Shown here one piece after another: positions 3,500-31,700 of a stretch of 40,268 nt of DNA. Origin of the DNA: Reclinomonas americana ATCC 50394 (Eukaryota); contig PS015129.1 in NCBI GenBank assembly GCA_048213135.1, forward strand, positions 79,369 through 119,636, read 5' to 3'. Both the position numbers and the translations under genes were made by a program. The notes below the pieces were generated by a model. It worked only from the letters and a program-made list of their open reading frames with translations, did not search any database and was not told where the DNA came from. How positions within the stretch are numbered: the stretch's first letter is position 1; each line of letters starts with the position of its first letter.

Positions 3500-3663
3500 T
3501 GGAGAGGGAGAGGGAGAGGGAGAGGGAGAGGGAGAGGGAGAGGGAGAGGGAGAGGGAGAGGAGAGGAGGAAGAGAGGAGAGGGAAGGAGAAGGAGAAGGA
3601 GAGGAGAAGGAGAGGAGAGGAAGAAGAGGAAGAGGAAGAGAGANNNNNNNNNNNNNNNNNNNN

Positions 3664-3729
<66 letters not shown>

Positions 3730-10768: not shown

Positions 10769-12440
10769 ATGCTGAATGAAGGCACTCTCATAGATGGACA
10801 TGGGCGTTCGAAAAAAGTTTCGGAGTGTGCGCAGCATTGCTTTGTGTGCCAAACAGCAAGTGGTGTGGTGTGGTGGATGGGGGCCCGTAGTGAGCGACGG
10901 ATGGGTCGGGGCGGGAACAGCAAGTCCGTCAGTTGCGAATCTATCTCGACGAAAAACGGTAGATTTGCACGATTTACGCGCGCAGACAAGTTGCAAGACA
11001 CAGTTCTGCACTGCTCTTCTTCTTCGCCTCCCTGTTAGACTTCTTTTTGACACGCACACACACACGCACGTGTGTGCATCTGCATCGCACTCTTTATTTT
11101 GTTAACATCTCTGTTTTGCGGTGAGTAGTGTCGGATTGCAGCAGTGGGCAGTTGTCGTGATCGCTCTCTCCCCTTCTCTCTGTGAATGTGTGTGCGTGTG
11201 TGTGGCAGAGCGTTGGTCAAGTGCACTTGTTGTCACCCCATCTCTTCCCCTACTGCGATGCGATCGTCTTGGTTGTGGTTCATCTCTCTCTCTCAGTCAT
11301 GCAGAGTCGATGCTCGCATGCGAGCTCTCTCTCCCTCTCACTCTGTCTCTCGTCGCCGAAGTGGACCTCCACGAGACACACACCTCTGTGCGTCTCTGTG
11401 TGTGTGGCCGTGGTGGGCGTCGCCGTGACTGCTCGTGTCTGTCGCTTGTTGGTTCACGACGACATCTGTCAGCCGTGTGTTGTCTGCTTGCTCTGTCTTC
11501 CATGTCTCTGCGTCAACGCTGGCACTGTGATTCACGTGGAGAGCTGACGGACTGGCCGAAGCAGAGCGCAAGAGAACCACAATGCACTGTGCTGCCTGCC
11601 AGCTGGAGAGCAGACGACACGCCAGAACGAAACACGGCCGTGTCGTGTTCCCTCTGACCGCAGTTGTCGCTGCTTTGCACTCTCCCGAAGCAACTCTCAC
11701 TCTCCTCTCTCCTCCATGCTGCATGTTGGTGTGCACGACACGAAGAGACAACTCATGGCCATCGTTCTTCGTCGTGCACTGTCTCGCCCTTTGNNNNNNN
11801 NNNNNNNNNNNNNNNNNNNNNNNNNNNNNNNNNNNNNNNNNNNNNNNNNNNNNNNNNNNNNNNNNNNNNNNNNNNNNNNNNNNNNNNNNNNNNNNNNNNN
11901 NNNNNNNNNNNNNNNNNNNNNNNNNNNNNNNNNNNNNNNNNNNNNNNNNNNNNNNNNNNNNNNNNNNNNNNNNNNNNNNNNNNNNNNNNNNNNNNNNNNN
12001 NNNNNNNNNNNNNNNNNNNNNNNNNNNNNNNNNNNNNNNNNNNNNNNNNNNNNNNNNNNNNNNNNNNNNNNNNNNNNNNNNNNNNNNNNNNNNNNNNNNN
12101 NNNNNNNNNNNNNNNNNNNNNNNNNNNNNNNNNNNNNNNNNNNNNNNNNNNNNNNNNNNNNNNNNNNNNNNNNNNNNNNNNNNNNNNNNNNNNNNNNNNN
12201 NNNNNNNNNNNNNNNNNNNNNNNNNNNNNNNNNNNNNNNNNNNNNNNNNNNNNNNNNNNNNNNNNNNNNNNNNNNNNNNNNNNNNNNNNNNNNNNNNNNN
12301 NNNNNNNNNNNNNNNNNNNNNNNNNNNNNNNNNNNNNNNNNNNNNNNNNNNNNNNNNNNNNNNNNNNNNNNNNNNNNNNNNNNNNNNNNNNNNNNNNNNN
12401 NNNNNNNNNNNNNNNNNNNNNNNNTCTCTCTGACTCTCAC

Positions 12441-12661: not shown

Positions 12662-13135
12662 TCTGTGCGCGTGCGAGTGTGGGTGAGACATGTCGCAACA
12701 AAAGGCGGAGAAATACAACACGAAAAAAGAGAGGAGAGTCTCGCGTTTGTGTGAGGGGGGAGAGTCGGGGCACAAGTGTTCGCCGCACACGCATGAGTGA
12801 CAACAGACACACAGAGAGAGAGAGGACATGCAGGAGGCGACTTTCTTTGTTGCGTTTGTGTGTGTCTTGTGCGCTCTTCTCACCGTGAAAGCGCGAAACG
12901 AAAGCACAAACAAAAATGCGGCGCCAAAAACCGAGCGTTGCGTGATATCTCTCTTTGATTATCGCGTGGTGCGAGAGGAGACGAGGTGGTCTTGCTTGCG
13001 GGGGGTGCAGGGAGGGAGAGAGAGGGGGGGAGGGGGAGGGGGAGGGGGAAGAGGGAAGGAGAAAGGGGGAAGAGAGGGAGAGAACGGGAGGTGTTTTGCG
13101 ACTGTAATCGGAAAAATCGGTGGTGGAGAGGGAGA

Positions 13136-13191
<56 letters not shown>

Positions 13192-13671
13192 GAGAGAGAG
13201 AGAGAGTAGTAGTACNNNNNNNNNNNNNNNNNNNNNNNNNNNNNNNNNNNNNNNNNNNNNNNNNNNNNNNNNNNNNNNNNNNNNNNNNNNNNNNNNNNNN
13301 NNNNNNNNNNNNNNNNNNNNNNNNNNNNNNNNNNNNNNNNNNNNNNNNNNNNNNNNNNNNNNNNNNNNNNNNNNNNNNNNNNNNNNNNNNNNNNNNNNNN
13401 NNNNNNNNNNNNNNNNNNNNNNNNNNNNNNNNNNNNNNNNNNNNNNNNNNNNNNNNNNNNNNNNNNNNNNNNNNNNNNNNNNNNNNNNNNNNNNNNNNNN
13501 NNNNNNNNNNNNNNNNNNNNNNNNNNNNNNNNNNNNNNNNNNNNNNNNNNNNNNNNNNNNNNNNNNNNNNNNNNNNNNNNNNNNNNNNNNNNNNNNNNGA
13601 CTCTCCCTTTTTCGGGTCGCTTGCTATGTGTCTTTTTGGACGCGGTTGCTGATTGATTACATTATTCGCAG

Positions 13672-15074
13672 GTGCGAAGATGCTCGACTTCAAGTTTGTC
13701 GACATGTTTGGCACGTGGCAGCACTTGGGTGTGCCGGTGGCCAGCAACCTCTCGGAGTCGCTGTTTGCCAATGGACTCGGATTCGATGGTTCCTCCATTC
13801 GCTGCTGGGAGGTGCGTGAGGGTTGTCTTGCACTTCTCTCTTTGTTTATTTGTTGTGTGTCTGGGTGGCTGCGAGTGGGACGGTGCATCGTGAGCGGGCT
13901 GTGCTGGGTGTGGGGTGTGATGAGATTTTCCTGTATTGAGTTGTTCCGTCTCCCGTATTGTGTTTCATGCTTTCTTGGGTGCAGTCGCATGGACTTGCTG
14001 CTGCATTTACCTTTGTCTCTTCACGTGTCTTGTGTTGCATTCTCTGTGCGTCGTCTTCGTCTCTTAAGTGTTCTGTGCATGGCTTGTCGTTTTTCACTTG
14101 GCTCAACACCTCATTTCGTTGCTGTTCTGTGATCCTCTTCCGCCGACTATTGACCAAGCTGCTGCTCTCTCTTGCACACCATCTTTGTGCATGGCTTGCC
14201 GATCTTCACTTTGCGCACTTTTCCTTTTCTGTCTATGCATGTAACTTGCTTTGTTGTTCTCTGTGATCCTCTCCACACATCGGCTGTTCTGACCAAGCTG
14301 CTTTTGTATCTGCTCTTGCCTGTGATCATGCATTCTTACTCTCTTTCCCTCTCCACACAGGGCATTGAGAACTCGGACATGGTGCTGGTGCCTGACGCCA
14401 AGACCGCCGCTGTGGACCCGTTCCACAAGGAGAAGACCGTCTCGTTCACTTGGTTGCGTTTTGCTTTCCTTCCTTCCCTGACCCTTCTCCCTTCTGATCG
14501 TTGTTCGCAGCTCGATCAACAACCCCGATGGCACGCCGTACGACCGCGATCCACGGTTCATTTTGGACCGTGCGCACAAATACTTGCAGTCGACCGGCAT
14601 TGCCACCTTCTTCAACGTGGGACCCGAGGCCGAGTTCTTTGTCTTTGACGGTGTGTTGACATTTCCTGCCATTGTGTGCTACAACGCCTCTCTCACCCCT
14701 CACCCCCACCCCACAGGCGTCTCGTACGAGCTGCGCCCGAACTCTGCCTCGTACTCCCTCGAGTCCGAGGAAGGGCCGTGGGAGACCGGCAACAAGTTCT
14801 TCCGCGGCAAGCCCAACCTCGGCTACAAGCCGCGCGTCAAGGGCGGCTACTACCCCGTGAAGCCGAACGACTACGTGAGCGACGTGCGTGCCGATATGGC
14901 GTTGGCGATGGAGGTGTGTTTGCATTTTTCTTCGCAATTCGTGTGGACGGGAGTCTGATTGTTTGTACACAGAGCTTGGGCATTCCCATTGAGGCGCAGC
15001 ACCACGAGGTCGGTGCCGGCGGTCAGTGCGAGATTGGCATGAAGTACAACGAGGCTCGCTTGATGGCTGATCAG
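13672..15074 (+). CDS. glnA: Type I (GSI-beta-like) glutamine synthetase, partial (exons 13672-13811, 14361-14452, 14511-14650, 14717-14913, 14973-15074; C-terminal half absent)
   Basis: LDFKFVDMFGTWQH, GLGFDGSSIRCWEGIENSDMVLVPD, PYDRDPR, VGPEAEFFVFD, NLGYKPRVKGGYYPVKP and EAQHHEVGAGGQCEIGM are GlnA signature motifs. Confidence 0.95.
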
Positions 15075-15090
15075 GTGCGTGACTTTTTCC

Positions 15091-15162
<72 letters not shown>

Positions 15163-15980
15163 NNNNNNNNNNNNNNNNNNNNNNNNNNNNNNNNNNNNNN
15201 NNNNNNNNNNNNNNNNNNNNNNNNNNNNNNNNNNNNNNNNNNNNNNNNNNNNNNNNNNNNNNNNNNNNNNNNNNNNNNNNNNNNNNNNNNNNNNNNNNNN
15301 NNNNNNNNNNNNNNNNNNNNNNNNNNNNNNNNNNNNNNNNNNNNNNNNNNNNNNNNNNNNNNNNNNNNNNNTTCCCCTCTCTCTTTCTCTCTCTCCCTCC
15401 TTTCAGGATATGAATGCAAAACGAGAAAAACACAAAATGCGTTTCTTGCTCACAAGGCGACCGACAGTACTGCTTCACTATGGTACAACACAATATGCGT
15501 TTCTGGAAACGCTGTAGCGACGCCACCACCATTTGACAACACAAAATGCGACACTGTGTAGACAGAACCTTACAAGCGTCGCTGTGGTGTTCTCAAGGCG
15601 ACGACGAACCACCCAACCTGCACATGCTTCTCGGCTCCGCACTGTCAATCGATACGTATGCCCCGCTCGTCTGGCACCCAATCCACCATCCAACCACGCG
15701 CTAGCAAGCGATTAGCAGAAGCCTGGACTGCTGCTGCCGTAAAGACACACCTGCCAAGCAAAGCAGTCGTTGCTGACTCTTCAGCACGATGCATTGATGC
15801 CATGCAAGAGAGTTACTTTTGCTTCGCCCATGACTAACGCCAGCACGGCGTGCTTGTGCCTCGTATCACCTTGCCCCCCCCCTACTCCCCAACTACATGT
15901 ACAACACGCGCACGTTGCGGCTCTTTTCATTTTGTATTGAATCAGTCGCACGCAGCAAAGCACAAAACAGAGGGCGCTGT

Positions 15981-16264: not shown

Positions 16265-17230
16265 GATTGCTGATTGTTTTTTGTTGAAGGGAAACTGTGA
16301 TGGTGGTGGGGATGGCATCAGTGAGCACAAGGAGAAGGGCGAAGAGGGGAGGGAGCGAGGAGGCATGGCCAAGAGAGCAAGTGCGAAAATTAGACATGAC
16401 GAGTGGGTGAGAGTGGGCAGCAGCGAGGGAAAGGAGAGGCGAGGTGCCTGTGTGCTAGGGTAGAGAGGTCACGTGTGGATCGTCGTGGCCACCGCGTTAC
16501 TCACCGACAAAAATGCGATGAAGGTCGTGAAAATTCCACTGTACTCATGCAAATGTCAAGGTTACAAAAGAAACGGACGAGCCCACCACGCTGCCTCCAA
16601 AGCATCAGCACAACATCCTGTTGACGGGAGCTGTGGATTTTTTCTGCATCCAATCTTGCGCTTGACTGCGAAGCATGACCGGAACCGTGGCGTTTTCTGT
16701 TGTCGCATACGATACATCAAATCTACGCTGCAGTGAGACAGCAGCAGCAGCGATGCCTCGCGGTGGTGACCTAAGAATGTGAAGTGAACACTGGACAACG
16801 ATCAAGCGAATTCCATGACGCGCAGCGCAGTGAGGCCCGCCACACTCCACGCCGTGCGGTACGTCTCCACTCCCTTCTATCGAGCGGCTTGTCGATGTGC
16901 CTATCTGTTGCTTTCTTTCCTTGTTCTCTTTGCCTCCTCTCGCTCTTCTCCCCTCATCATTTCCACTCATTTTTCTGGCCATGGTCCCTGGCCTGGCCCT
17001 CATCATCTACGACACCCTCTCTTCCATCTCTTTCCCCCCTCCCGCCTCCCCCCGCGACAACGTCATGACGGTGTGTACGCACCTTTCACTAAAAAAGAAG
17101 AAGAAGAAGAACCTCAAAAAAACCCCAACTGAGACTGAGACGGTGGAGGGATCATTTCTACCTGCCTTCTCGCAATCACTTATTCCCTCTCTCCCTCTCC
17201 TCTCTCTATCTCTCCCCCCACACGCATGTT

Positions 17231-19790
17231 TTACACGCGGTCGCTCCTGGCCGAGTGGCTGCCATCACGAGGCGACGCAGCGTGCGCGTGGATGTTGTGT
17301 CCGTTGACGACCAGCGGTGCACTGGCCTCGTCGTCGTCGTCGTGGTGCGCAAACGAAATGTTGCTGTTGCGCTTGCCAATGGCACTGGCGGCGTCGTGGC
17401 ACAGCCACATGGCGAACTCGGGCTGCTTCGGCACGGCGTTGTAGTCGTCCGGCACGTGCCACTCGGTGTGATCCTGGAACAGCTGGTCCTTTGGCGGCAC
17501 CGTGGGGCAGAAGACACGCACAATGAAGCCGCTGAATGCGCCGCAGCCGAGGCCCATGGCCAGACTGATGCCAGTGGAGGCCAACTGGTACAGCGCCTGG
17601 TCATCGCCACGAGCGAACAGCGAGTTGAAGTCCTGGCCGTACACAATGGAGGAGGCCGTGGCTGTGCTGACCACACCCGAGATACCGCCGAGAATGCCGG
17701 GCAGGCCGTGCAGCGCCAGCACGCCGCAAGTGTCCTGCAGACCAATGGTGCGCTCCAGGAACGGAATAATGTACTTGTAGGTGATGCACGACAGAATGCC
17801 GGCGACAAAGCCAATCGTGGCGGCGCCCTGTGCGTGAGCAGGAGCAGTGGGGAGTGAGGTGGTGGATCGGAAAAATTAGGAAATGGTGAGTGACACGCAA
17901 CACCAGGCCCGATAATAAGATCCGACGACGTGCCGACAGCGACACCGCCAGCCAGAGTGGCGTTCTGGATCATGACCATGTCAAAGTGACCGTTGGTGAG
18001 CTTGCTCATGGCGAACGTGCTGATGACGCTGGACGAGAGCGACAGCACAGTGTTGATGACGACGCGGAACTGCGAGTTGCCAGAGATGGCGGCGTTGAAC
18101 GACGGCCAGCTGCAAGACAAAGAGGTGAGCACGACAGCGAGGAAGACATGGAAGAAGGCCGCCGCTGCAGCGGTGCGTCCACGAAACTAACTGTAAAGAG
18201 GAGAGTAGCATGTCAGAAAATGAAACGAACAAGAGAGAGAGAATGATGGGTACGCAACATCCACAGGAAGAACGTTCCAATGACGGCGAAGCTGCAAACA
18301 AGCAAGGACAGGATGTGAGGCGAACAGCGCACGCGAAGTGTCTCTGACAGGTTTGCAAATCACACACACACACTCACATGTCGCTCTGGTAGCTGGAGGT
18401 GCGATCGGACGCGGTCTTGCCCTCCTTCGGCGACAGTACCATGCTGGCCGCCAGGCCAAAGAAGGCACCGAACTNNNNNNNNNNNNNNNNNNNNNNNNNN
18501 NNNNNNNNNNNNNNNNNNNNNNNNNNNNNNNNNNNNNNNNNNNNNNNNNNNNNNNNNNNNNNNNNNNNNNNNNNNNNNNNNNNNNNNNNNNNNNNNNNNN
18601 NNNNNNNNNNNNNNNNNNNNNNNNNNNNNNNNNNNNNNNNNNNNNNNNNNNNNNNNNNNNNNNNNNNNNNNNNNNNNNNNNNNNNNNNNNNNNNNNNNNN
18701 NNNNNNNNNNNNNNNNNNNNNNNNNNNNNNNNNNNNNNNNNAATGAGGGCGCCAAAGCTGATGAGGAAGGCAATGGCGGCAAAGTTGCCGAGGATGAGGT
18801 TGTTCACACTCAGCGACAGTGTCTCCCAGTGGCCCGTGGCCACATTGTGCCAGAACGCCTCGGTCAGGATGCCCCACTCAATGCACACAGCGGCCAGAAT
18901 CATGGTGAAGCCGAGCGCGCCAAAGCCGTAGCGACGCAGGAAGGTCATGAGGTAGCCGAAGCCTGTGTGAGTGAGAGAGTGGAAATGAGAGATTCGGCAT
19001 CGAGACATATACGGAAAAAGCAGGGAGATCTGCATGCGTGCGTCTCACACACCGATGAATGTCATGATGCAAATGCCTGTGGCATGTCGCACACACGTCA
19101 GTTTGGATGCACACCACTCACACACGGAAAAAAAGTAATGGTGAGTTGTGTGTGACGCAACCACTATAGAAGGTGTAAAACGAGGCGACGCGGAACTCGG
19201 GGCCGACTTGATCGGGAATGGAGAGGCCATTCGAGTAATCCGTGAGCGTAAAGTAGAGAATGATAATGGAGACTTGGAAGATGACGAGCGGGAGGAAGAG
19301 ATCCGTCACACGCGACGTCCACGAGCGCGCAATGTGATGATCGTGCGCGCTCATGGTCTTGGAGCGCGCATGCTGAATGTCGCGGTCGACCTCCATCAAC
19401 TGCGTGTCCATGCAGCGCAGGTTCAATTGCAAGCCAACAGTGATGCAGCAACAAAGCGAACACACACACGCAACTCGATTGCGCCGCTGGCGCAGCTCAA
19501 TGAGGTTGCGCTCCAGCTCCGCCACCTGCGCATGCGAATCTCCCTCCGCCGCAAGAGTGCCTGCGCGCGTGCATGCATGACACACAAGTCACGCACTTGC
19601 ACACCAGTGTGCGCCAGCAAAGTGAACATAGATACGGAACGAGAGAGGGCCTCCAGCGTGGAAATCTCCTGCGCGCTCAGTGACGCCAGTTGACGCGACA
19701 GTTGACTGCATGCACACAATGAGCAACACACGCACGCACACTCATGCACGCACAGAGAGAGAGACGCAACTCATTGCTTGTGTGCGCCAT
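17231..19790 (-). CDS. Rh-type (Rh50/Amt superfamily) ammonium transporter 1, interrupted by gap 18475-18740
   Basis: [65 protein letters not shown] and DTCGVLALHGLPG. The start was rebuilt as MAHTSND (exons 19771-19790, 19641-19705, 19475-19560, 19162-19399, 19053-19076...). Confidence 0.92.
18188..18190 (-). other. Predicted 3-nt microexon (TTA) in Rh transporter 1
   Basis: ctttacag|TTA|gtttcg. It restores LW-I-Y-WPSFN. Confidence 0.75.
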
Positions 19791-19941: not shown

Positions 19942-22448
19942 ATGGACTATGAGATGCGAGAGCTGGGCCAGCCGCATGGCGCGTGGCCATTGGGCGGGAA
20001 CAACAAGGAGGCGGCGAACCGGTATGTGCGCGGAGTGGAAGTGCGTGCATGCTTACGTGAGCCCAATTGAACTGATGCGCGCTGTGTGCAGTTTGGTGAC
20101 CGAAGTGGCGCAGCATGCAGAGGTAATAGTCGTCGGTGCTGTTGGTGCGCGCGCAGTGCTCATTGTCGTACACACGCACAGAGGCTCAAGCAAAGAGAGC
20201 AGCATGCAGTCGACGATTTGAACAGTTGCGCTCTCCCTTCCTGTTTGTGCACTCTCCACATTGCTCACACGACGCGCAGACAAACTGTCGGATGCCACTG
20301 TGGCGCCGCACGAGGTGGACACTGCAGAGGTGGCGCTGGCCAAGGCGCGCCGCAAGAGTGAAAAGGTACACGGAGACTCTCCCTCTCCCTCACTCTCACT
20401 CCCAATGCGCTCACTCTGGCGTGCAGATTACGGAGTACCTGCAAGAGGCCAGCAACATTGCGCATCGCGAGTCCGTGGCGCAGCGAGTGTATCCACTCCC
20501 GCACGATGACAAGGGCGCGACGCATGATGGTGGCATTGATGACGTGACTGAGGCGCACCCGCACTCGTCGTTCTGCGACCGCCTGCTCACTGTCATTCCG
20601 GCGCTGCTCTTCGAGACGGTGATGATCATTCTCTTCTGGCGCCTCACGGCCTACGACTTTGCCGTGCTCAGTGCCGCGCAGAGTGGCGCGCCTGCTCGTG
20701 TCACTGATTTCTACGAGTTGAGAATCTCCACTCTCCGCATTAGTCGTGTCTCTCTCTTCTGTCTCGTTCGCTCACCCCTTCTTTGTCTGTGTGCGACGCA
20801 GCATGTACACGGGCATTGCACTCATGGTGTTGGTCGGTTTCGGCTTCCTCATGACATTTATGCGCTCGCACGGATTCGGTGCGCTGGGACTCACCTTTTT
20901 CGTCACGGCCGCCGGCATTCAGTGGGGCATGCTGTGCGTCGCCTTCTGGGAGGTGGTGCACACGGGTGAATGGGATCACCGCTTCGAGCTCAGCATCCTT
21001 CTGCTGATCGAGGGTCTCTTTGCCGCCGCCGCCGTGCTCATCACGCTGGGCGTCGTCATTGGCCGTGTCTCGTTTGTGCAAGTGCTGTACATTCTCGTCC
21101 TCGAGATCCCACTCTACTCGATCAACTACTACATTGGCAAGCACCACTTCAAGGCCTCCGACATTGGCGGCAGGTGAGCGAGAGAGGGGGGAAACGCAAA
21201 GATGTCTCGTGCAGCACGCTGACGACAGTCTCGTGTCGCCACAGCATGTACATTCACTTGTTCGGCGCCGTGTTCGGCCTCACTCTCTCCAAGTTCCTGA
21301 AGGAGGACGCGGTGGCGGCGCGCCAGCGCTCCTCTCAGGAGGACGCCGCCACACGCTACAACAGCGAGCTCACCGGTTTCCTCGGCACTCTGTTCCTGTG
21401 GATGTTGCGTGCAGTGCGCTGTCTGCTGCGTCTCTTTTTTTTTGTCTTAGTGCTCACTCTTCCCCCTCCACATTACTCCCCTGTTTGCCATGCTCAGCTA
21501 GTTGCGTCTGCCACGTGAGCTGTTTTAAGATGCAATCATGCCCTTATGCTTACCATCCTTCTTCTGTCGTCCTCGCAGCTGGCCATCGTTCAACGGCGCG
21601 TTCGCCGGCGACAACCAGTACCGCGTGGTCATCAACACTGTGCTGGCGCTCCTCGGTGCCGTGATTGCCACCGTGGCCACCTCCCACGTGTGCAAGGGCC
21701 AGTTCGATATGGTGACCATGCAGAACGCGACGCTGTGCGGCGGTGTGGCCGTCGGCACTGCTTCCGATCTGGTCATTGGCTCGGGAGTTGCGATATACTC
21801 ACCCGGCCACGCTCTCCTTCTTCTTTCCTCAACTGTCACTGAACGTCCTCCTGTGCAGTCTGCCATCATTGTCGGCACCTGCGCCGGCATCGTCTCCACT
21901 CTTGGCTTCCTGTACATTACGCCATACCTGACCGCCCGGTTCGGCCTGAAGGACACGTGCGGCGTGCTCAACCTGCACGGCGTCCCCGGTGTGATTGCCG
22001 GCATTGGTGGCATGTTTGCCACGGCGCTGGCCAAGGAGATCAACTACGGCCAGGAGTTCGCGCTGCTGTTCCCCAACAACAAGAAGCAGCCGGCGTACCA
22101 ACTGGCCACGCTGGTGGTGTCCATTGGCATTGGATTTGCCGGCGGCTTCCTCTGTGCCATGTTCCTCAACCTCGTTGCGTTTTCACCTCCCCTTTTAAGC
22201 ATCCTTTTGCGCGTCGGACTCACGCAGTGGCGCAGACTCGCTGCATGATGTCACCGGTGAAGCGCTGGTACAGCGACAAGGTCGAGTGGCACACACCAGA
22301 CGACATTGTCGTGCACCCGCTGATCGCCAAGAACATGCAGCTGCGAGTTGCGTTTGCTTGCTCCAATCCTCTCCGTGGTCTATACGTGTGCGACTCACAC
22401 ATCATCGTGCATGCATGCATCCCACAGGCGGCCACAAGTGCCCTCTAA
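19942..22448 (+). CDS. Rh-type ammonium transporter 2
   Basis: [70 protein letters not shown] (both pore His present) and YSDKVEW. ATG 19942, TAA 22446-22448. Confidence 0.94.
21498..21500 (+). other. Predicted 3-nt microexon (CTA) in Rh transporter 2
   Basis: atgctcag|CTA|gttgcg. It restores LW-I-Y-WPSFN. Confidence 0.78.
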
Positions 22449-22723: not shown

Positions 22724-24975
22724 ATGGCCGCGCAACCAGCCGCCGCTGAGCAAGAGCGCCTGATGGCGGAACTGTGCGATATTTGCGGCATTGACAGAGC
22801 TCACGCGTTGCCGCTGCTGCAGCGCACACACTGGGATGTGGCTGTTGCGTGTATGTGCGCTTTCTCCACACACATAGCAGTGACCAACACATGTGTGCAG
22901 GAGGCTGCCATGATGCAACTCGAGGAGGCTCAACAAGTGCCCGACTTGCCGCCGAGTGTTTCGTCTCTCCCTCTCACTCACACACCCACGCTCTCCCTCC
23001 CTTGCGCACACACTCACACTCAAACCAATGTGCCACTACGCAGGGCGATTTCGCAGTCGCGTTGGCCCTGGCGGCAGCGGACGAAGGGGCTGCTGCATGG
23101 AACCCACCTGCTGCGCGACACAACCAACCCCAACCTGAGCAGCCGCTGTCCGTGCCCGCAGCGCCCGCACCTGCACGCGCGGCACCCGTTCCCGCACCAG
23201 CGCAGCAACAATTTGCAGACGTGGAGCGTCGTGTGGCGCACTCTCTGGCCTCTCCGCTGGTGGCACAAGCCGGTCCGGTGGCCGAAGCTGCTCCGTATCG
23301 CGCAGCAGCACAACCGCAATCACTGCCGTCGTACCCGGAAGCATCGCCACCGCGTGCGCAGTATGTTCCACCGGTTCCGGCGCCATCGCCAGTGGTATTA
23401 CCACCACCAGTGGCTCCTGCGCCCGTGGTTCCACCCGTGGCTGTGCAACCAGCTGCTGCTGCCGCGGCTGCAGCTGCACCTCCTGCTGCTGTCGGCGACT
23501 ACGGAGACGAGGCGCTGAATGACGAGTGGGCACTGGCGATTGCAGCGGCGGCGGCGGAACCCGAGCCGCCCGAGGCCGACTTGCCGGCGCGCGTGCTACA
23601 CCTGGAGACGATGAATGCACGGGTGCGTGGTTGCATGTGCTGGTCGTATTGTGGTGTGTGACACTCACCTCTGTGCAGCTGATTCGTTTGCTGGCCGAGA
23701 GCCAGGCTGAGGTGTGTGTATCGTCGGCAATGTATTCTCTCTCCCCACGAATTGACTGACTTGGTTCGCAGGTGGAGGAGCTCACCGGTCAGATGAGTGT
23801 GCTGCTGATGCGCCTGGTGAGTCGAGACAAAGAGAGGGACGCGCTCCACGGTGATTTGACGTTTCCACCATATACAGGATGCCACGGAGCGGGCGGCGAT
23901 GGCTGCTGGTGTGGAGCTGCCGCGTGTGGATTCCCCCGCTGCTGCAGCGGCACCGGCCAGGCCGTTCCCACTCATGGATCTGGCGGCGCAGCGGCAGTCT
24001 CCACCGCGGTTCCGCGCCGAGCCCGTGGCAGCAAGAGCAGCGGCACCAGCGGCAGCCGCGGCAGCCGCCGCACCTGCCGGCGATCCTTCTGAGCGGCCTA
24101 TAACTGTGCGCATGCGACACGGCGCAAATCTCACAGACAGTTGCGTGCACTGACGTGAGAGACCTCGAATGTGCTTCCATTCTCACCGTCGATATTACGC
24201 AGTTCGTGTCAGACCTTCGGCAACGATTGCCGAGTGGAAGCGGAGTTGCGTGTCCACTGCATTGTGCTCTTGTGCTTGCAGTGTGTGTGTGTGTGTGACC
24301 ACCATTTGATGTGCAGTTGTACGCGCGGCCATCCCAGCTTTCGCGCACACGACAGACATGTCGCTGCGATTGATCCGCCGTGGGCGTGAGGTGGTGGATC
24401 CCAACACCGTGGCCGGTTCTGGCACAGAGGAAGGCGAAACCGTAATGGCGATGCAGCGGTGTGTGAGCACGCACAGTCACCTCCTGCAAGTGTCATTGTT
24501 TTCACTCACGCGCTGCCACAGGATTGCGGGCTCGGACCGCCGACTCAAGACCGACCTTCAGCGCCTGGCACACGGTGTTGCCAAGCGCTTGCAGGGTGTC
24601 CACGCATACGACTTTGCGTGGACGCCCGACGCGCATGTCATTGGACACGAGCCCGGCCAACGCGAGTTTGGCGTGATGGCACAAGAGCTGGAAGCGGCCT
24701 TTCCGACGCTGGTCGGCGACGCAGGCCTCGTGGCCACAGGCCACGTGACAACCGCCGACGACAGCAGCGTCACCTTCAAGGCGGTAGCGTACGACCGCAT
24801 CGCTGTGCTGCTGGTGGACGCCCTCAACGAGCACACCGAAGCCCTGGAGCGGACCGAGCGAGCACGACAGGAACTCGCGGCGCTGGTTGATGCACAGGCG
24901 AAATTGCTTGCGGCGCAACACGAGGCGTGCGCGGCATTACTTGCGAGAGTCAACGCACTAGAAAATCAAGAGTGA
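22724..24975 (+). CDS. UBA-like / coiled coil / ubiquitin-like / peptidase S74 (ICA) fusion protein, paralog A (exons 22724-22843, 22901-22957, 23044-23622, 23679-23711, 23772-23816, 23878-24139, 24203-24244, 24317-24458, 24522-24975)
   Basis: UBA-like: ELCDICGIDRAHALPLLQRTHWDVAEAA. UBL: ITVRMRHGANLTDIRVRPSATIAEWKRIVRAAIPAFAHTTDMSLRLIRRGREVVDPNTVAGSGTEEGETVMAMQRIAG. S74: SDRRLKTD...FGVMAQELEAAFP...VAYDRIAVLLVDALNE, then a coiled coil. All nine exons are phase-consistent. Confidence 0.88.
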
Positions 24976-25151
24976 AGTGGCTGAATTCCCGAACACACTT
25001 CACAACTCGGCAATGCCGCGCGGCAAGCAAACGCCAGACTGCCTGTGGACAGTAGCAGCAGCAACCACGAAGGGACGGCGACACGAGCGACGAGTTAATC
25101 GCGTTCGTGTCCTGTGATCGCGGCAATCGTTCTATCTTTGAGGAGAAGCCC

Positions 25152-27514
25152 ATGAGCAGACCCAATAGCATTGGAGGCGGCAACGCACAGCAGCCGGTGG
25201 GCGGTGATGTGCCGGAGCAGCCGGGTGGTGGGCGCCTGTCACACACCGAGCAGGAGGCCGCACTGCAGGAGATGTGTGACATTTGTGGCATTGATCGCGA
25301 TGCAGCGCGACCAGTGCTGGAGCGCGCAAACTGGAACGTGCATGTTGCGTGTGGGAGGGAGAATCAGAGAGAGAGAGAGAAAGAGAGTGAGAAGAACATG
25401 GACACAAACACGAGCAATCACAAGTGTTTTTCCGCGTGATCGCTCTTCTGCTGCTGCTCGTGATCCGTCTCTCTGTGTGTACATGCTCTTCCTTACACTC
25501 TCTGCTCTCACTGCTGTCCATCAATACCGCGTTTCTTGCTCACTCTTTCTCATTCTCTGTCGTGTGCTGTTGTTGTCCACTCTGCGTTCACAGGAAGCCG
25601 CCTCGCATTACCTCGACAGCGTGCATGCCATTGATGAGCCGGAGCCGGTGATGATTGGCGGCCCTGGTGTGCTGCTCATGCGACTGGTGCGTTGTCTCGT
25701 TGTGCTGCTTGTGTGTGTACACAGCGCGCTCATGTCTCGGACAATACCAACAATCTCGCAGGCGGCTGCTGTCGGTGCGGAACAGAGTCAGGCACGTGTG
25801 CAGGAGCTGGAGACGCAGAATGCCGAGGTAGGTGTCCTTCCAGCGTTGTTGTTGTCGTTGTTGTGGGGAGTCTCACTGGAATGCATAGTTGACGCGGCGG
25901 CTGGACGAGAGTCAGAGTCAGGTGCCGTGACTTGCGCGAGTCTTTCTCTGTCTGGTGTTGTGTCCTCACTGTTGTTTTGTATAGTCGGAGGCCCGTGCTC
26001 GTCACGTGCGTGAGCTGCTGGCACAGGTGGAGCGACTGCAGCAACAGCTGGTGTGTGTATGTGTTTGTGGGTTCCGTTTGTTTCTGCATGCTGGATTGTT
26101 CACGTTTCCGCTCCACTGACAAGGCCCGTGCGGAGAAACACGTGGAGGACATGCGCGCGGAAGCCAATCGTGTGGCACAAGCGGCAGCCACTGCAGCAGC
26201 AGCAGCTGCCGCCGCTGCCGGCAACATGTACCAGCCAAGTGGTGAAGCATCAGGTGCCGCTGCCGCTGCTGCAGCTCCGGCCGCCGCACCAGCTCCAGCC
26301 GCTTCTCCTGTGGAAGCACCCGCTCCAGCCGCCGCAGTGCAGGCACCGCCCGCAGCAGCAGCCGCTGCGCGTAATGCGCCCGCCGCTGGACCCGTCCTGG
26401 TGGCGCCACCGCAGTCCATGCGCAACATGGATGCTGCCGCTCCACCACCAGCAGCACCAGCAGCAGCCCCCGCGCACCCTGCACCGCACCCCGCACCTGC
26501 ACCCGCACCCGCTGCAGCGGCTGCCGCAGCCTCGGCCGCCGCGCCTGCTGCAGCAGAGGACAGCAATCGCACGCCAGACGGACCCCAACCACCTGCCAGC
26601 TCCGAAGGCAGAAGAATCAATGTCCGCGTGCGCGATGCTCAGCATTTGCACACTGGTTTGTCAAGTGATCCCGTTCTTCTTGTCCTCTCCCGTGCCTCTG
26701 CTCAAGCACAACATTGCGCACAGTGACTGCCATGACCAACGAAACCATCAGTCAGTTGAAGCAGAGTTGCGTATCTGTGTGCGGCATGTACAGGTTTGCT
26801 TTTCTTGAGCACTTATCTCTACTTGACAGCCATCCGCACTGCGTTGCCACGACTGGCGCACCTGAGTGACGAAGACATGCGACTGGTGTACCGCGGACGC
26901 GAGATCTCGCTGGACTCCTCCACACTTGCATCGGTGCCATTCGAGGACGAGGGCGTGGTCACCATTGTGCAGCGGTAAGTGGACGCAGTGGGGGTGTGTC
27001 TTGGTGAGTGCGCTCAAAGTGATACTATTTTCCCTGCAGCATTCGCGGCTCGGACATGCGCTTCAAGACCGATTTGCGACGCCTTGAGGGCGGCGTGTCG
27101 GAGCGGCTGCGCGCAGTGCACGCGTACCAATTTGAGTGGAATTCCGAGGCTGCGCGTGTCGGCTACACACCAGGCGATCGCGAGTTCGGTGTCATGGCGC
27201 AAGAACTGGAGGCCGCCTTCCCGTCGCTGGCTGGCGGTGCGGAGAGTGGCGGAGTGGTCGTCGACACGCAGGTACCGCCATCGAGTGGGTCGTCGGCGCC
27301 GGCCTCCTTCAAAATGGTGGCCTACGAGCGCATCGCCCCGATCCTCATCGATGCCGTCAACGAGCACACCGAGGCGCTGCAGGTGGCGGAGCGCGACTGC
27401 GATCGGCTGCAGTCGCTGGCCGACCAGCAGGCGAAACAACTGCGGGCACAGCAGGAACTTCTCACCATGTTGCAAGCACGTATCGAGGCGCTGGAGAAGG
27501 CGCCAAAGCAGTGA
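25152..27514 (+). CDS. UBA-like / coiled coil / ubiquitin-like / peptidase S74 (ICA) fusion protein, paralog B (exons 25152-25343, 25594-25686, 25762-25827, 25889-25921, 25985-26050, 26124-26655, 26724-26765, 26830-26974, 27040-27514)
   Basis: UBA-like: EMCDICGIDRDAARPVLERANWNVHEAASHYLD. UBL: INVRVRDAQHLHTVTAMTNETISQLKQTIRTALPRLAHLSDEDMRLVYRGREISLDSSTLASVPFEDEGVVTIVQRIRG. S74: SDMRFKTD...FGVMAQELEAAFP...VAYERIAPILIDAVNE. The UBA and UBL intron positions and phases match paralog A. Confidence 0.88.
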
Positions 27515-27624: not shown

Positions 27625-28704
27625 TTACCACCACGACCCAGGGTCGCCGCGGCAGCGATTGAGCACGACGGAAGCATCCTCGACAATGAAACACCGCAAA
27701 ACCATCTCTGGCAAGCAACGCGAATCCGGTTCTTCCTCCTCGTCGGGCTGCATCTGCTGCACTGCTTGCATCGCCGCCCGCGCCTGACTCAACTCGTCAC
27801 TGGCCAGACCGAGTGGAGCGGCCCACACACGCATGGTGTCATCACGGCTGCCACTCACAATGTGTAGATTGTCTGCGGAGATGGCGACGCACGACACGAG
27901 GCGAGTGTGCCCTTCTAGTCGTCGGAGTTCGTCGCCCGTCACCAGCGACCACAGTCGCACAGTGCAGTCCTCACTCCCGCTCACAACGTATTGACCGTCA
28001 GGAGAGACGGCAACGCAGCGCACAGGGTGGCTGTGGCCTGTCAGTTGCAGCACCTCTTCATCGCCCACCAGCGATCGCACATGCACAATGTTGTCGGCAC
28101 TCCCAATCAGCACGCGCTGACCGTCGGGAGTGACGGCGACACACAGCAAGCGAACCTCAAACGTCATGCGATGCAGTTGCTCGCCAGTCGCCAGTGACCA
28201 CACCCGCACTGTCTTGTCGCGACCTGCACCCCCGCTCACAATGAACTCGTTGTTGGGAGTGACGGCGACCGACATTACCCAGTCGGTGTGACCAGTCAAC
28301 AGTCGCACTTGTTCTCCATTCGCCAGCGACCACACTCGCACTGTCTTGTCATAGCTCCCACTCACGACGTGTTGCCCGTCGCGAGAGACGGCGACACTCA
28401 TCACCACATTGGTGTGGTTCTGCAACTGGCGAACCTCCTCGCCAGTCGCCACTGACAACACTCGCACAGTCATGTCACCAGCACCACACACAATGTGCTG
28501 CTCATCGGGAGTGAAGGCGATGGATGACCACACGCGCCGGACGCCGTCGAACAGCCGCACTGTCTCGCCACTCAATAGCGACATAACACGCACAGTCGTA
28601 TCCCAGTTGCTGGCGACAACATGCTGGCAATCGCGCGTAATCGCCAATGCCGACACGAGGTTGCCGAACTGATGAACGCGCGGAGGAGGCAGTGGATGTG
28701 ACAT
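27625..28704 (-). CDS. Intronless WD40-repeat protein (~359 aa, about 7 repeats plus a helical C-terminal tail)
   Basis: Repeats such as NHTNVVMSVAVSRDGQHVVSGSYDKTVRVW, GHTDWVMSVAVTPNNEFIVSG and GHSHPVRCVAVSPDGQYVVSGSEDCTVRLW. Likely start is MSHPLPPP at 28704; the longer ORF start overlaps the exportin gene. Confidence 0.92.
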   Translation of the reverse strand: MSHPLPPPRVHQFGNLVSALAITRDCQHVVASNWDTTVRVMSLLSGETVRLFDGVRRVWSSIAFTPDEQHIVCGAGDMTVRVLSVATGEEVRQLQNHTNVVMSVAVSRDGQHVVSGSYDKTVRVWSLANGEQVRLLTGHTDWVMSVAVTPNNEFIVSGGAGRDKTVRVWSLATGEQLHRMTFEVRLLCVAVTPDGQRVLIGSADNIVHVRSLVGDEEVLQLTGHSHPVRCVAVSPDGQYVVSGSEDCTVRLWSLVTGDELRRLEGHTRLVSCVAISADNLHIVSGSRDDTMRVWAAPLGLASDELSQARAAMQAVQQMQPDEEEEPDSRCLPEMVLRCFIVEDASVVLNRCRGDPGSWW

Positions 28705-28797
28705 GGTTGGCAAGCAGGCGATGACTGGAGGGTTTGTGTAAGTTCGCGTCGTAAAATTCCGCCTGTCTTTGCGTTTTTTGTTTGTTTGGGAGGGCGA

Positions 28798-31700
28798 ATG
28801 GCAGACGAAGGGGCGTCGTTCGACAACGCCGTGTCGTGTCTGTACGACCCGAGCTCGCCACAGCAGAATCGCGCACGGCAATACCTCGAGCGCGTCAATG
28901 ACAACTGGCGCTTCTTGGCCGACCGCCTCTACCACTCACCCATGGTGCAGTCGGTGTTCCACTCACTGTCTCTGCTGCACGAGTTTGTCTCCAATCGGTG
29001 AGCACACACACGCGTGTGTGTGCAGTGCGTGTGCAGTGGGGGCGGGAGACATGTTCACTGACATCTCTGACACAGACTGGGCATGCTGCCGCTGAGTGAG
29101 CAGCAGGCGTTCCAGGAGTTCCTCATCACGTTTGTGCACGACCACACCACGTCGCCGTCGGGAGTGAATCCTGTGCACGATTCGCAGCTGTTTGTGCGCA
29201 CCAAGTTTGCGGTGGTGTATGCGCATGCGATTGTGCAGCAGTACCCGGCGCAGTGGGAGACGGCGTTCACTGCGCTGCTGGCGCAGGCGCAGGCACTGAT
29301 GCAGCAACTACCGGAGGGACCCGATGCATCGGTGTGTGTTTGAGAGAGAGAGGGTGATTGAGGATGTTGATGAGGATGAGGATGATGGTCCGGAGCTCTT
29401 CTCTGCTGTCTGAGTGTCGAGGATGCAGCGTGTTTCAGACTCTGATATCGTGTGACTGCCCCCACCTTTGTCTCCGTTGTGTTCTTTCTCTGCATGTTCT
29501 CCTTCTTGTTCTTCTTCCCTTCAGTTCTCGCTCTTCTCTCTCCCTTCCCTCCCTCCCTTGCTGTGCTGTGAGTCTCATTTCTCTGTTGTCTGAGTGTCGA
29601 GTTTCGAGAGTGTTTCTGACTCTGCTTTCGTTTGGTTGTCTCCTCCTCCACTTGCGTGTTCTGCATGCTCTCTTTCTTGTGCTTCTCCGCGAGACTCTTT
29701 CGTTCCTACTCCTCTCTCTCTCCCTCTCCCTCTCCCTCTCCCTCTCCCTTCCCTTTCCCCCTCCCCTTTTCTCTCCCTCTCCCTCTCCCTCTCCCTCTCC
29801 CTCTCCCTCTCCCTCCCGTGGGTCTCTTTGAATGTTGCTTCCTCTCGTCTCTCATCTTATGTTCCTATTCCTTCGCTCCAGGGCTACGGTGTCGGCCTCA
29901 TCGAGTACCTGCTGACAATCTTCACCACCGTCGACGACGAGGTGGTCAATCGTGAGATCCATCGCACCAGTGTGATGCACCAGGCGGGCATTCGTATTGT
30001 TGCGTGGATTGGTGTTTCTTCTCTCCTCGTGTCCACGTGCGTGTGTGTGTGTGCTGAATGGCATGGGGGAGTGCAGAAGGACGCTCTGCGTGAGCAGTGC
30101 ATTGGGGAGATTGTGAACTTTTGGGTCTGGGTGCTGGCTTCATGTCGCACGCACCACCCGTCACTTGTGCGGCAGTGTTTGGACGTCTTGTCGCGTTATG
30201 TCGGTGCGTTGTGTTTTTTGGTAGCAGAGGATAGCATTCACCTCATGGCTTCTCACGTTGTTGGCAGAGTGGATCGACATTTCGCTGGTGGTCAATTCAG
30301 CGCTGCTGGCACAACTGTACCAGTACCTGCAGGACGGAGAGACGCGCGCCGAGGCCGTCAATTGTGTTGCCAAGGTGAAGTTCGATTGCTTTTTTTCACC
30401 TGCACACTCTCCGCACTCACGCGTGCTCCCATTGCAGATTGTCGAAAAGGGTATGGACCCACCACAGCGCAAGATCTCTCTGCTGCAGGAGCTGGACATT
30501 GCAAATCTGTTGGATGCTGCCGCGTCAGCAATAGCGTCGCTGCAAGTTGCGGTACAGTGCCGCTTGTAATGCTGCATTCTCGGTGACTCACAGCAGCTGC
30601 TGCAGCCGAATCCAACGGAGACAGACCTGCTGAACGAAATGTCGGACCCGTACTCGTCGAATGTCGCCATGTTATGCTGCACCGTTGCCATGGAGCTGAT
30701 CGAGGCCGTTCCCATGGTGTGCATTTCTGGCGAGTGGTTCTTTCCAAGCAGTGTTTCATTTTTCATTGTTTCCTCGTGTGCGCAGCTGGGTTCGCCAGAG
30801 GTCATGGAATTCCGCACGTGGTCCCTGGAGGCACTGGATCGTGTGCTGGCGCTCATTGTCAGATTCATGCGAACGTCGCCGCCGGTGGTGGCGCAGGCCG
30901 TCATCGACAGCGTCATGATTTTTGCTCGACAGGTGTGTGAGTGTTTGTTGTCGACCTCTGTTTGTGTCCATTATTGACTAACGACCTCGGTACAGCTCAA
31001 GCGAGGTGACTTGATGCCACTGCCGGCGGAGCCGGGTGCACCAGTGGAATACATGGAATCACATCAGCAGGTGCACTGCTTGTGTTGCTTCCACAGACTA
31101 TTGTGTGTCCTTTCTCCTTCTCATAATTCGTCCATTGTCGTCGCTTAGTTGCTGCTGGAAATGATCGAAGTGATTCACTGCCGCATTGTGGTTCCCGCCG
31201 ACGTGGATTTGCTGGCCGGCGAGTCGGACGATGACACGTTCTTTATCGAGATGCGCGCTGTGCGTTACTCCCCCCTTTTCCTTGTTTAACGACCGTCCTC
31301 CGCCGTCACACTCATCTGCTACTGAGCAGAATATGCTCATCGCGCTAAAGGCGTTGATCAACTCGGCCCCGGAACCCACGCAACAAGTGGTGTACCAGCT
31401 GCTTTCGCGGTGTTGCAGCAATGTCGAGGCGTTTGCACCGGAACTCGAGGCCGCGCTTGCCATGTTTGACATTGTCGGCGAGACTCTGAGCAGTGCGTGA
31501 GGAAGAGCAACTCATGCGCACTCACTTTCTCTGTGACCTCTCACTGCTTCTCATCAGCTTGTGTATCGGAACCTGTTGGTATCATTGCGGACTGCATGAG
31601 ATTACTGCTGACCTCGCCGGTGCGACAGTCGAGCAACCTTATTGTGATCAAGGCCTTTATCGATGTCATTACGCGATACGTGAACTTTTTCCTCGCCGAG

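Follow-up and report, generated by a model that had tools for sequence, protein, structure and literature searches.

How might a ubiquitin-like protein be freed from its precursor if the activity that cuts it loose belongs to the same chain? The question is raised by two neighbouring genes of Reclinomonas americana ATCC 50394, which we call A and B. They lie on contig PS015129.1 of assembly GCA_048213135.1, in a stretch of 40,268 nucleotides (positions 79,369 to 119,636, forward strand) that was analysed as a whole and is referred to here as the window; all coordinates are those of the window. Gene A (22724-24975, + strand) and gene B (25152-27514, + strand) each have nine predicted exons and eight GT-AG introns, and encode predicted proteins of 577 and 547 amino acids with the same architecture, in which a UBA-like domain and a probable ubiquitin-like (UBL) domain precede a C-terminal domain of peptidase family S74, the intramolecular chaperone autoprocessing (ICA) domain. 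On balance, we think that each precursor trimerises via its ICA domain, cuts itself at a Gly/Ser bond and releases a UBA/coiled-coil/UBL protein that ends in one Gly.

An S74/ICA domain forms the last exon of both genes

Sequence, predicted fold and modelled assembly together make a solid case that the C-terminal domain of A and B is a full member of family S74. The domain is encoded by the last exon only, at 24532-24972 (+) in A, where a Pfam core (24532-24714) is followed by a strand-plus-long-helix part, and at 27050-27511 (+) in B, with the core at 27050-27229 and the C-terminal helix at 27323-27499. The Pfam family Peptidase_S74 (PF13884, cut-off 22 bits) is matched with 44.6 bits in A (E 1.8e-11) and 45.2 bits in B (E 1.2e-11); the alignments cover profile positions 1-57 and 1-56 of 58, respectively, and position 1 falls on the Ser. 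Residues S4, D5, R7 and K9 (last-exon numbering) are invariant between the two genes, and in an alignment of 30 sequences (A, B and 28 of the nearest database proteins) the S, D and K are at least 90% conserved. The near-invariant family positions G50, A53, Q54, E57, P61 and Y95 are all kept in both. A first-pass annotation of this locus, made from the sequence, had described an intact Ser/Lys(+5) dyad in both copies; sequence, Pfam match and alignments bear this out and show Arg(+3) to be kept too. The motifs GVMAQE and VxYxxIxxxLxxAxxE that it listed are likewise found in both. When the window was scanned in all six frames, SDxRxK and G[VIL][MIL]AQ[ED] turned up at the A and B sites and nowhere else.

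Profile searches point to the same family. PHROG tail-fibre families match residues 3-130 (in A, E 1.2e-11 over 3-118), always at the C-terminal end of the profiles. A profile built from A and B reached a single PDB entry, 6f45 (the T5 tail fibre with its ICA domain, E 5e-4), and the 30-sequence family profile reached 6f45 with E 1.2e-23 and the MYRF ICA domain 7dc3 with E 3.8e-20. An Atlas language-model search with the read-through of A returned generic S74 clusters only (0.86).

An AlphaFold2 model of the last exon of B (mean predicted local distance difference test score, pLDDT, 89; predicted template-modelling score 0.69) consists of short strands and helices followed by a 59-residue helix (residues 95-153). 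When this model was compared with solved structures by Foldseek, ranks 1-10 were all ICA structures. The best was the MyRF ICA domain 7dc3 (E 1.3e-4, template-modelling scores 0.62/0.68, root-mean-square deviation 3.0-3.7 Å), and next came 3gud (phi29) and 3gw6 (endosialidase), both intramolecular chaperones of phage proteins. The S74/ICA identity given in the first-pass annotation thus holds, with Pfam scores above cut-off in both copies and the fold of the B model matching ICA structures.

The trimer that had been envisaged for this domain was recovered, as a model only, with confidence: three copies of the B exon scored 0.88, the best of three controls 0.01. That mark was reached by 21 of 30 solved homo-pairs and by none of 23 solved single chains; among 29 eukaryotic proteins, 17 attained it, yet just one of the seven that have no older solved relative did. 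Since solved ICA trimers exist, the pass shows likeness to them and may stem from the model having learned them. Contacts agree to at least 93% between runs, and the pLDDT of the partner chains is at least 86. Residues 1-15 of one copy (IRG-SDMRFK.., which hold the Gly-Ser bond) touch residues 20-56 of the neighbour, and the long C-terminal helices are in contact at heptad spacing. This arrangement fits the 'cable through a donut' and the triple coiled coil reported for MyRF (PMC8326128).

A probable ubiquitin-like domain directly precedes the S74 domain

Ahead of the conserved Ser lie 78 residues ending in ..QRIAG in A (24100-24531, +, including introns 6-8) and 79 residues ending in ..QRIRG in B (26616-27049, +, including introns 6-8). 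In A, their coding sequence starts late in exon 6, runs through exons 7 and 8 and closes with the first three full codons of exon 9. This region is quite probably a ubiquitin-like domain, as three weak, partly independent lines of sequence evidence agree. The searches covered exon 8 alone, 46-47 residues that make up roughly the second half of the domain. With this half-domain query, B matched the Pfam ubiquitin family PF00240 at E 0.0062 (16.7 bits, below the cut-off of 25.4) and the Dsc3 UBL family (Dsc3_N) at E 0.15, and A exon 8 gave no Pfam match. A phmmer search of the PDB with B exon 8 alone returned 0 matches; a joint profile of A and B exon 8 returned nine chains at E<=10, of which the best seven are UBLs or Rad23 UBLs at a sub-threshold E of 0.43-0.92, and these align at the expected part of the domain. 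In an Atlas search with B exon 8, ubiquitin and Rad60-SLD clusters were among the nearest named ones (0.85), a weak result that we take as a lead only. Judged by eye, the spliced 78-79 residues show the expected alternation of strands and a helix. The UBLs of A and B share 29 of 78 residues. Thus, of the UBA/UBL/S74 architecture proposed at first, the outer two domains stand above their Pfam cut-offs, and the ubiquitin match, seen with exon 8 of B only, falls below it.

The Pfam alignment also bears on the register of the C-terminus. Residues 13-46 of B exon 8 align with positions 36-68 of the 72-position PF00240 profile. Under a gap-free extension of this alignment, the profile ends on the Arg of ..IRG, and the Gly and the Ser follow one and two positions later. 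The profile end presumably corresponds to ubiquitin residue 74. Given that assumption, the extension fits the suggestion of the first-pass annotation that the Ser occupies the position of ubiquitin Gly76.

The predicted cleavage site

In the predicted spliced products, the UBL end and the S74 domain meet as ..MQRIAG/SDRRLK in A and ..VQRIRG/SDMRFK in B, with no linker between the Gly and the Ser. The predicted scissile site of A spans 24529-24549 (+), with Gly at 24529-24531, Ser (TCG) at 24532-24534, Arg(+3) at 24541-24543 and Lys(+5) at 24547-24549; that of B spans 27047-27067 (+), with Gly at 27047-27049, Ser (TCG) at 27050-27052, Arg(+3) at 27059-27061 and Lys(+5) at 27065-27067. Both Ser codons and both junctions follow from the exon models and are as first described. 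In both genes, the end before the predicted cut is a single Gly, without a Gly-Gly.

A Gly just before the cut (P1) is rare in the family, being found at 11 of 264 SDx[RK]xK sites (4%), taken from 257 of the 267 S74 proteins fetched. It is therefore tolerated, not demanded, by S74 domains, yet it is kept in both A and B, and is better explained by the UBL side of the junction.

Upstream regions and divergence of the paralogs

Both genes start with a UBA-like domain, for which the Pfam family UBA_4 scores above threshold in each, as the profile check had been expected to show. In A it lies at 22760-22840 (+; E 7.8e-6, 26 bits, cut-off 21.8; exon-1 residues 13-39) and covers the first 29 of 43 profile positions, the remainder being expected in exon 2; in B it lies at 25254-25340 (+; E 1.5e-7, 31.5 bits; exon-1 residues 35-63). 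The middle region is Ala/Pro-rich and its exons gave no Pfam match. A crude a/d heptad score picks out a heptad-like segment in exons 3-6 of each gene, at 23617-23883 (+; residues 251-280) in A and 25777-26186 (+; residues 101-171) in B, which is suggestive only of a coiled coil. Apart from UBA_4 and ubiquitin, no Pfam family, and so no Ndt80-type domain, was found in the upstream exons, and an NCBIfam search gave nothing relevant.

Comparison of the paralogs by nonsynonymous (dN) and synonymous (dS) divergence gave a dN of 0.38 and dS of 2.11 for the S74 domain (82 of 147 residues identical), 0.66 and 1.69 for the UBL, whose dN is the highest of the three domains, and 0.52 and 0.99 for the UBA region (23 of 50 residues identical). 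Judged from these values, the A/B duplication is old (dS saturated, at about 1.0-2.1), yet protein change has been constrained.

Another account of these proteins is that the ICA domain is mainly a trimerisation or folding module of an adaptor with UBA and beta-grasp domains, such as a cofactor of the proteasome or of Cdc48, in which cleavage is absent, slow or incidental. The beta-grasp would then never act as a modifier and may be a non-conjugated UBL or of UBX type. Shuttle and adaptor proteins do combine a UBA-like domain with a beta-grasp, the trimer model is a confident one, and the UBL of A is divergent, ends in ..IAG and lacks a Pfam match, while the UBL as a whole evolves with the highest dN. 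We nevertheless consider this account unlikely: the Ser, Arg(+3) and Lys(+5) are kept in both copies despite saturated dS, and would not be needed for trimerisation alone. The UBX family (PF00789) gave no match to exon 8 of either gene at E up to 10, a half-domain query for which the HMMER filters drop most weak matches; only ubiquitin and Dsc3_N appeared, and the PDB matches are Rad23-type and free UBLs. With no UBX signal and with UBL-type matches pointing the other way, a UBX adaptor was set aside as first choice.

Predicted exon structure of the tandem genes

The two genes are arranged head-to-tail, with B starting 176 nt past the stop codon of A. Their exon models were built by choosing GT..AG borders such that one frame stays open. 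On the + strand, the exons of A are 22724-22843, 22901-22957, 23044-23622, 23679-23711, 23772-23816, 23878-24139, 24203-24244, 24317-24458 and 24522-24975, and those of B are 25152-25343, 25594-25686, 25762-25827, 25889-25921, 25985-26050, 26124-26655, 26724-26765, 26830-26974 and 27040-27514. All 16 introns are GT..AG and 56-250 nt long, and the phases 0,0,0,0,0,1,1,2 are common to both genes. Exon 4 is 33 nt in each, with 22 of 33 nt identical. By blastp, the two proteins align over their full length (E 2e-82, 215 of 594 columns identical).

The intron that matters most for the fusion is intron 8, which sits between the UBL part and the S74 exon (A, 24459-24521, +, 63 nt; B, 26975-27039, +, 65 nt; phase 2 in both) and interrupts an Arg codon three residues upstream of the conserved Ser in both genes. 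In A, it contains no in-frame stop, and a form retaining it would place 21 residues between the UBL and the Ser and would still code for the S74 domain. In B, retention would bring a stop at the first codon, so that splicing would be required there. The S74 frame of B opens nine codons before the Ser and has no Met ahead of it; the exon with the nucleophile could therefore not stand alone. The S74 domain occupies a single intron-free exon, whose 5' border (24522 in A, 27040 in B) lies three codons before the nucleophile, and the UBL is interrupted by three introns. The borders of exon and domain all but match, which is what one would expect had the S74 module come by exon capture or gene fusion.

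These models raise the question of whether the UBL exons and the S74 exon might not share one mRNA at all, or whether the genes might be silent. The junctions are predicted from sequence logic and paralog conservation, five of the 16 donors (starts 22844, 24140, 24245, 25344 and 26766) read GTTGCG in place of the usual GTRAGT type, and the genes lie in an intron-rich eukaryotic draft scaffold with two assembly gaps in the window. We judge an artefact of this kind, or a pair of dead genes, to be highly improbable, as both paralogs need the same eight introns with the same phases for a full open reading frame, the S74 exon of B lacks a start of its own, and dN/dS is well below 1 in all three domains. 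The guanine-cytosine (GC) content also separates exons (0.66) from introns (0.45-0.57). As for the donor GTTGCG, base composition predicts 13.6 copies on the + strand of the window and 36 are present; on the - strand, 10.2 are expected and 19 are present. This excess suggests that the hexamer is probably a normal donor of this genome and that the lineage may have a donor consensus of its own. The spliceosomal introns and the host-like GC content led us to reject a viral or contaminant insert.

No second example among the collections searched

A phmmer search with the S74 domain against 1.84 billion representative proteins gave 988 matches at E<=0.001, two at <=1e-10 and none at <=1e-30. The best match had E 2.6e-11, and the best matches are 42-49% identical over the core. 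The best 150 of the 988 are all tail-fibre- or beta-helix-like; the motif is present in 140 of these, and no UBL-like tail was seen ahead of it. A Pfam scan of 136 of the best 150 (the 14 longest were left out) found Peptidase_S74 in all 136, and neither ubiquitin nor UBA is among the 25 families listed out of 36 that matched. A word-index search with the S74 exon of B for longer proteins had 0 matches at E<=0.001 among 5633 candidates. A search with the 30-sequence profile gave 3227 matches among 8000 sequences scored, with PF00240 or PF14555 in none of the 120 matches listed, and the clusters of ten top matches carried no informative names.

Contig collections gave the same picture. Scanning with a pattern from the A+B alignment produced no confirmed relative among 33 metagenome, 27 viral and 19 prokaryote genome stretches. 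A degenerate DNA pattern for a 10-residue stretch of the S74 core found no match among either the metagenome or the viral contigs; its sole match in a genome contig (L001, 5579-5607, - strand) was rejected as a chance hit antisense to an NAD-dependent epimerase-like gene in a Humidesulfovibrio metagenome-assembled genome. Full-text search of the literature found nothing that joins an S74/ICA domain to a ubiquitin-like domain, and no such fusion was found in the parts consulted of a review of beta-grasp architectures (PMC1949818). These negatives come from collections in which spliced eukaryotic proteins may be thinly represented and the A and B proteins themselves are missing, and from searches that included no domain-architecture query. 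As far as the literature, protein representatives and contig collections searched can tell, then, the architecture is undescribed, as had been supposed. No second example of the UBL-S74 fusion came up in these collections, and it is possibly lineage-specific.

Proposed self-cleavage of the precursor

We picture A and B each as a cytosolic precursor that opens with a UBA-like domain, continues through an Ala/Pro-rich linker containing a heptad segment and ends with a beta-grasp UBL and an S74 ICA domain. The ICA domains of three chains would assemble round their C-terminal helices into a trimer, and trimerisation would thread the Gly-Ser segment of one chain into the neighbouring subunit. There the Ser hydroxyl, activated by Lys(+5), would attack the Gly carbonyl, giving an ester intermediate that is then hydrolysed. 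The products would be an ICA trimer and, detached from it, a UBA/coiled-coil/UBL protein with the C-terminus ..RIRG in B or ..RIAG in A. In such a scheme, the ICA domain would stand in for the deubiquitinase that processes ordinary ubiquitin precursors, and may also bring the product together as a trimer in advance. The released protein might then be conjugated, act as an adaptor, shuttle or decoy, or be handed on directly by acyl transfer. The proposal builds on the architecture, catalytic residues, fold and trimer model described above; from these it predicts the splicing, the cleavage, the position of the cut and any downstream use of the Gly.

Published work on other ICA domains agrees with several of these points. 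The cut falls directly N-terminal of a Ser in endoNF (S911) and MrfA (S767) (PMC3828593) and between P586 and S587 in MyRF (PMC8326128), and Lys(+5) serves as base for the attack of the Ser hydroxyl on the adjacent bond (PMC3828593). Cleavage needs trimerisation of the ICA domain via its C-terminal coiled coil; a contribution of the upstream fold is not described there, and in MyRF the ICA domain barely touches its upstream stalk (PMC8326128). The reaction is autonomous in E. coli and yeast (PMC3742443). The statement in the first-pass annotation that ICA domains trimerise and cut just before the Ser by a Ser/Lys dyad agrees with what these three papers report (PMC3828593, PMC8326128, PMC3742443).

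Several points weigh against self-cleavage at the Gly/Ser bond in A and B. The main doubt is steric. Known substrates are a thin trimeric beta-helix or stalk, and here three globular domains would have to fit in some five residues ahead of the Ser, of which the last three are already part of the interface in the trimer model. The cut would leave one Gly, not Gly-Gly. The matches that identify the UBL are, as set out above, sub-threshold, weak or, for A exon 8 and for phmmer with B exon 8, missing, and the exon junctions are predictions. The architecture is known from one genome. Finally, no E1-, E2- or E3-like gene lies nearby in the window, although neighbourhood means little in eukaryotes.

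If the ester does form, it might be resolved in more than one way. Besides hydrolysis, a target amine or hydroxyl could take up the acyl group, making the protein an ATP- and E1-independent dispenser that attaches its own UBA-UBL part; alternatively, the ..RG end could be charged by a canonical E1. A dispenser of this kind would be a convergent counterpart of the ciliate BUBL/BIL domains and of cholesterol transfer by Hedgehog. Attack of the Ser hydroxyl on the scissile bond (PMC3828593) implies an acyl-ester on the Gly carbonyl, BIL2 of Tetrahymena BUBL1 conjugates its upstream ubl to substrates without ATP (PMC8616854), and the P1 Gly is kept in both paralogs though so few other S74 sites have one. 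Against this, the S74 cases in the literature covered end in hydrolysis, with no known transfer of the upstream chain, the product would have 390-430 residues, far above known modifiers, and its tail is one residue short of ubiquitin. We therefore hold such an attachment to be decidedly unlikely. The S74/ICA domain might even serve as a built-in, ATP-independent activating enzyme, its UBL-O-Ser ester (formed on trimerisation, an internal analogue of the E2~Ub oxyester) being resolved by a substrate lysine without E1, E2 or E3, and this we regard as very unlikely. Hydrolytic release of a protein ending in a single Gly remains the outcome that we favour for A and B.

Genomic context

Nitrogen-assimilation genes lie just upstream of gene A, at 13653-15413 (+), 17206-18186 (-) and 20970-22248 (+). 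In this run, matches to Gln-synt_N (E 1.3e-11) and Gln-synt_C (E 4.3e-6) mark exons for glutamine synthetase, and two genes, one on each strand, code for ammonium transporters (E 2.2e-10 and 1.5e-23). Directly downstream of B, at 27625-28935 (-), is an intronless 436-codon open reading frame for a WD40 beta-propeller, with generic WD40 matches only; among the named ones, a protein of the chytrid Zopfochytrium polystomum ranks first (42% identity). The window was also scanned for Rfam families and tRNA genes, with no match.

Microsatellites of CT/GA dinucleotides and CTCTCC/GGAGAG hexanucleotides (scores 126-166) occur at 1703-1830, 3501-3624, 3664-3726, 13126-13206, 15096-15162 and 29711-29815, and similar CT-rich stretches are found ahead of genes, including the 5' region of gene A. 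The scaffold is a draft, with runs of N (assembly gaps) at 11795-12424 and 13217-13598, and these two runs account for an apparent low-GC stretch at 12-14 kb.

Relation to known systems

The closest structural parallel for the ICA part comes from MYRF, which is considered here together with Dictyostelium MrfA. Shared with these are a eukaryotic, cytosol-facing S74/ICA domain, the SDxRxK dyad, a C-terminal trimerising helix and, as predicted for A and B, the logic of a trimerisation-dependent self-cleavage that frees an N-terminal functional part. A and B differ in lacking an Ndt80-type DNA-binding domain, a beta-helical stalk and a transmembrane segment behind the ICA domain, whose helix closes the chain (in B, with four residues to spare). 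In sequence, their ICA domains stand at least as near to bacterial and phage proteins as to MYRF. Lacking the Ndt80 domain, the stalk and the membrane anchor, A and B are not members of the MYRF family, and a MYRF orthologue was ruled out by the missing DNA-binding domain and transmembrane segment.

The closest sequence relatives are phage tailspikes and tail fibres (endoNF, phi29 gp12, T5 pb1) and bacterial tail-fibre-like proteins, which belong to the same Pfam family and share the position of the S74 domain at the very C-terminus. They differ in what precedes the Ser: beta-helix- or fibre-like sequence in the 140 motif-bearing proteins of the best 150 matches, as opposed to a UBL end (..VVTIVQRIRG, ..ETVMAMQRIAG) without fibre-like repeats in A and B, which moreover are spliced genes of the host rather than viral genes. 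A and B are thus no tail fibres.

From the ubiquitin side, the nearest parallel is the ciliate BUBL proteins, in which an autoprocessing domain follows the UBL without a gap and opens with its nucleophile (PMC8616854); by that placement the C-terminus of the UBL is freed or activated without a deubiquitinase or E1 (PMC8616854). The processing domain of BUBL is of Hint/BIL (intein-like) type, whereas that of A and B is a trimeric Ser/Lys S74/ICA domain, and A and B have no Hint-type Pfam match. A and B also differ in having one UBL and one processing domain in place of an array, preceded by a long UBA/coiled-coil N-terminal extension. A and B are thus not BUBL members despite their similar working logic, since the processing domain is not Hint/BIL. 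The parallel to BUBL drawn in the first-pass annotation, with a different autoprocessing domain, is therefore upheld by the Pfam match to Peptidase_S74 and by the ICA fold.

Ordinary precursors of ubiquitin and UBLs (polyubiquitin, ribosomal fusions, SUMO, NEDD8, UFM1, ATG8) resemble the predicted make-up of A and B in that a beta-grasp carries a C-terminal extension whose removal is needed to lay a Gly bare, and UFM1 and ATG8 end in a single terminal Gly. In these precursors, the extension is removed by a separate protease, whereas an intramolecular removal is predicted in A and B. Unlike ordinary UBL precursors, A and B have as their extension a 150-residue folded trimeric domain, and their UBL is preceded by an N-terminal part of 310-350 residues. 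UBA/UBL shuttles and UBA/UBX adaptors (Rad23, Dsk2, p47 and the UBXN type) resemble A and B in having a UBA-like domain and a beta-grasp (a probable one in A and B) on one polypeptide, and Rad23 UBLs are among the matches of the exon-8 profile. The order differs, in that A and B place the UBA first and the beta-grasp last, with the Gly directly before a domain of self-cleaving type.

A and B thus join two known parts, the ICA autoprocessing known from MYRF and a fusion plan like that of the ciliate BUBL proteins, in a combination that we have not found elsewhere. If A and B do cut themselves at Gly/Ser, the phage-derived ICA domain would have a third setting besides the maturation of tailspikes and the release of MYRF, and its first link to the ubiquitin system. 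It would also be a second known way, besides Hint-type BUBL, in which a UBL is matured or activated by a fused domain and not by a separate protease. Should the ICA domain go further and attach the protein by itself, it would represent a second, independent invention of the BUBL principle, from a phage tail-fibre domain. Such E1-independent ligation through an S74 ester, if true, would bear on how ubiquitin-like signalling evolved and could be turned into a small tag that cleaves itself or ligates.

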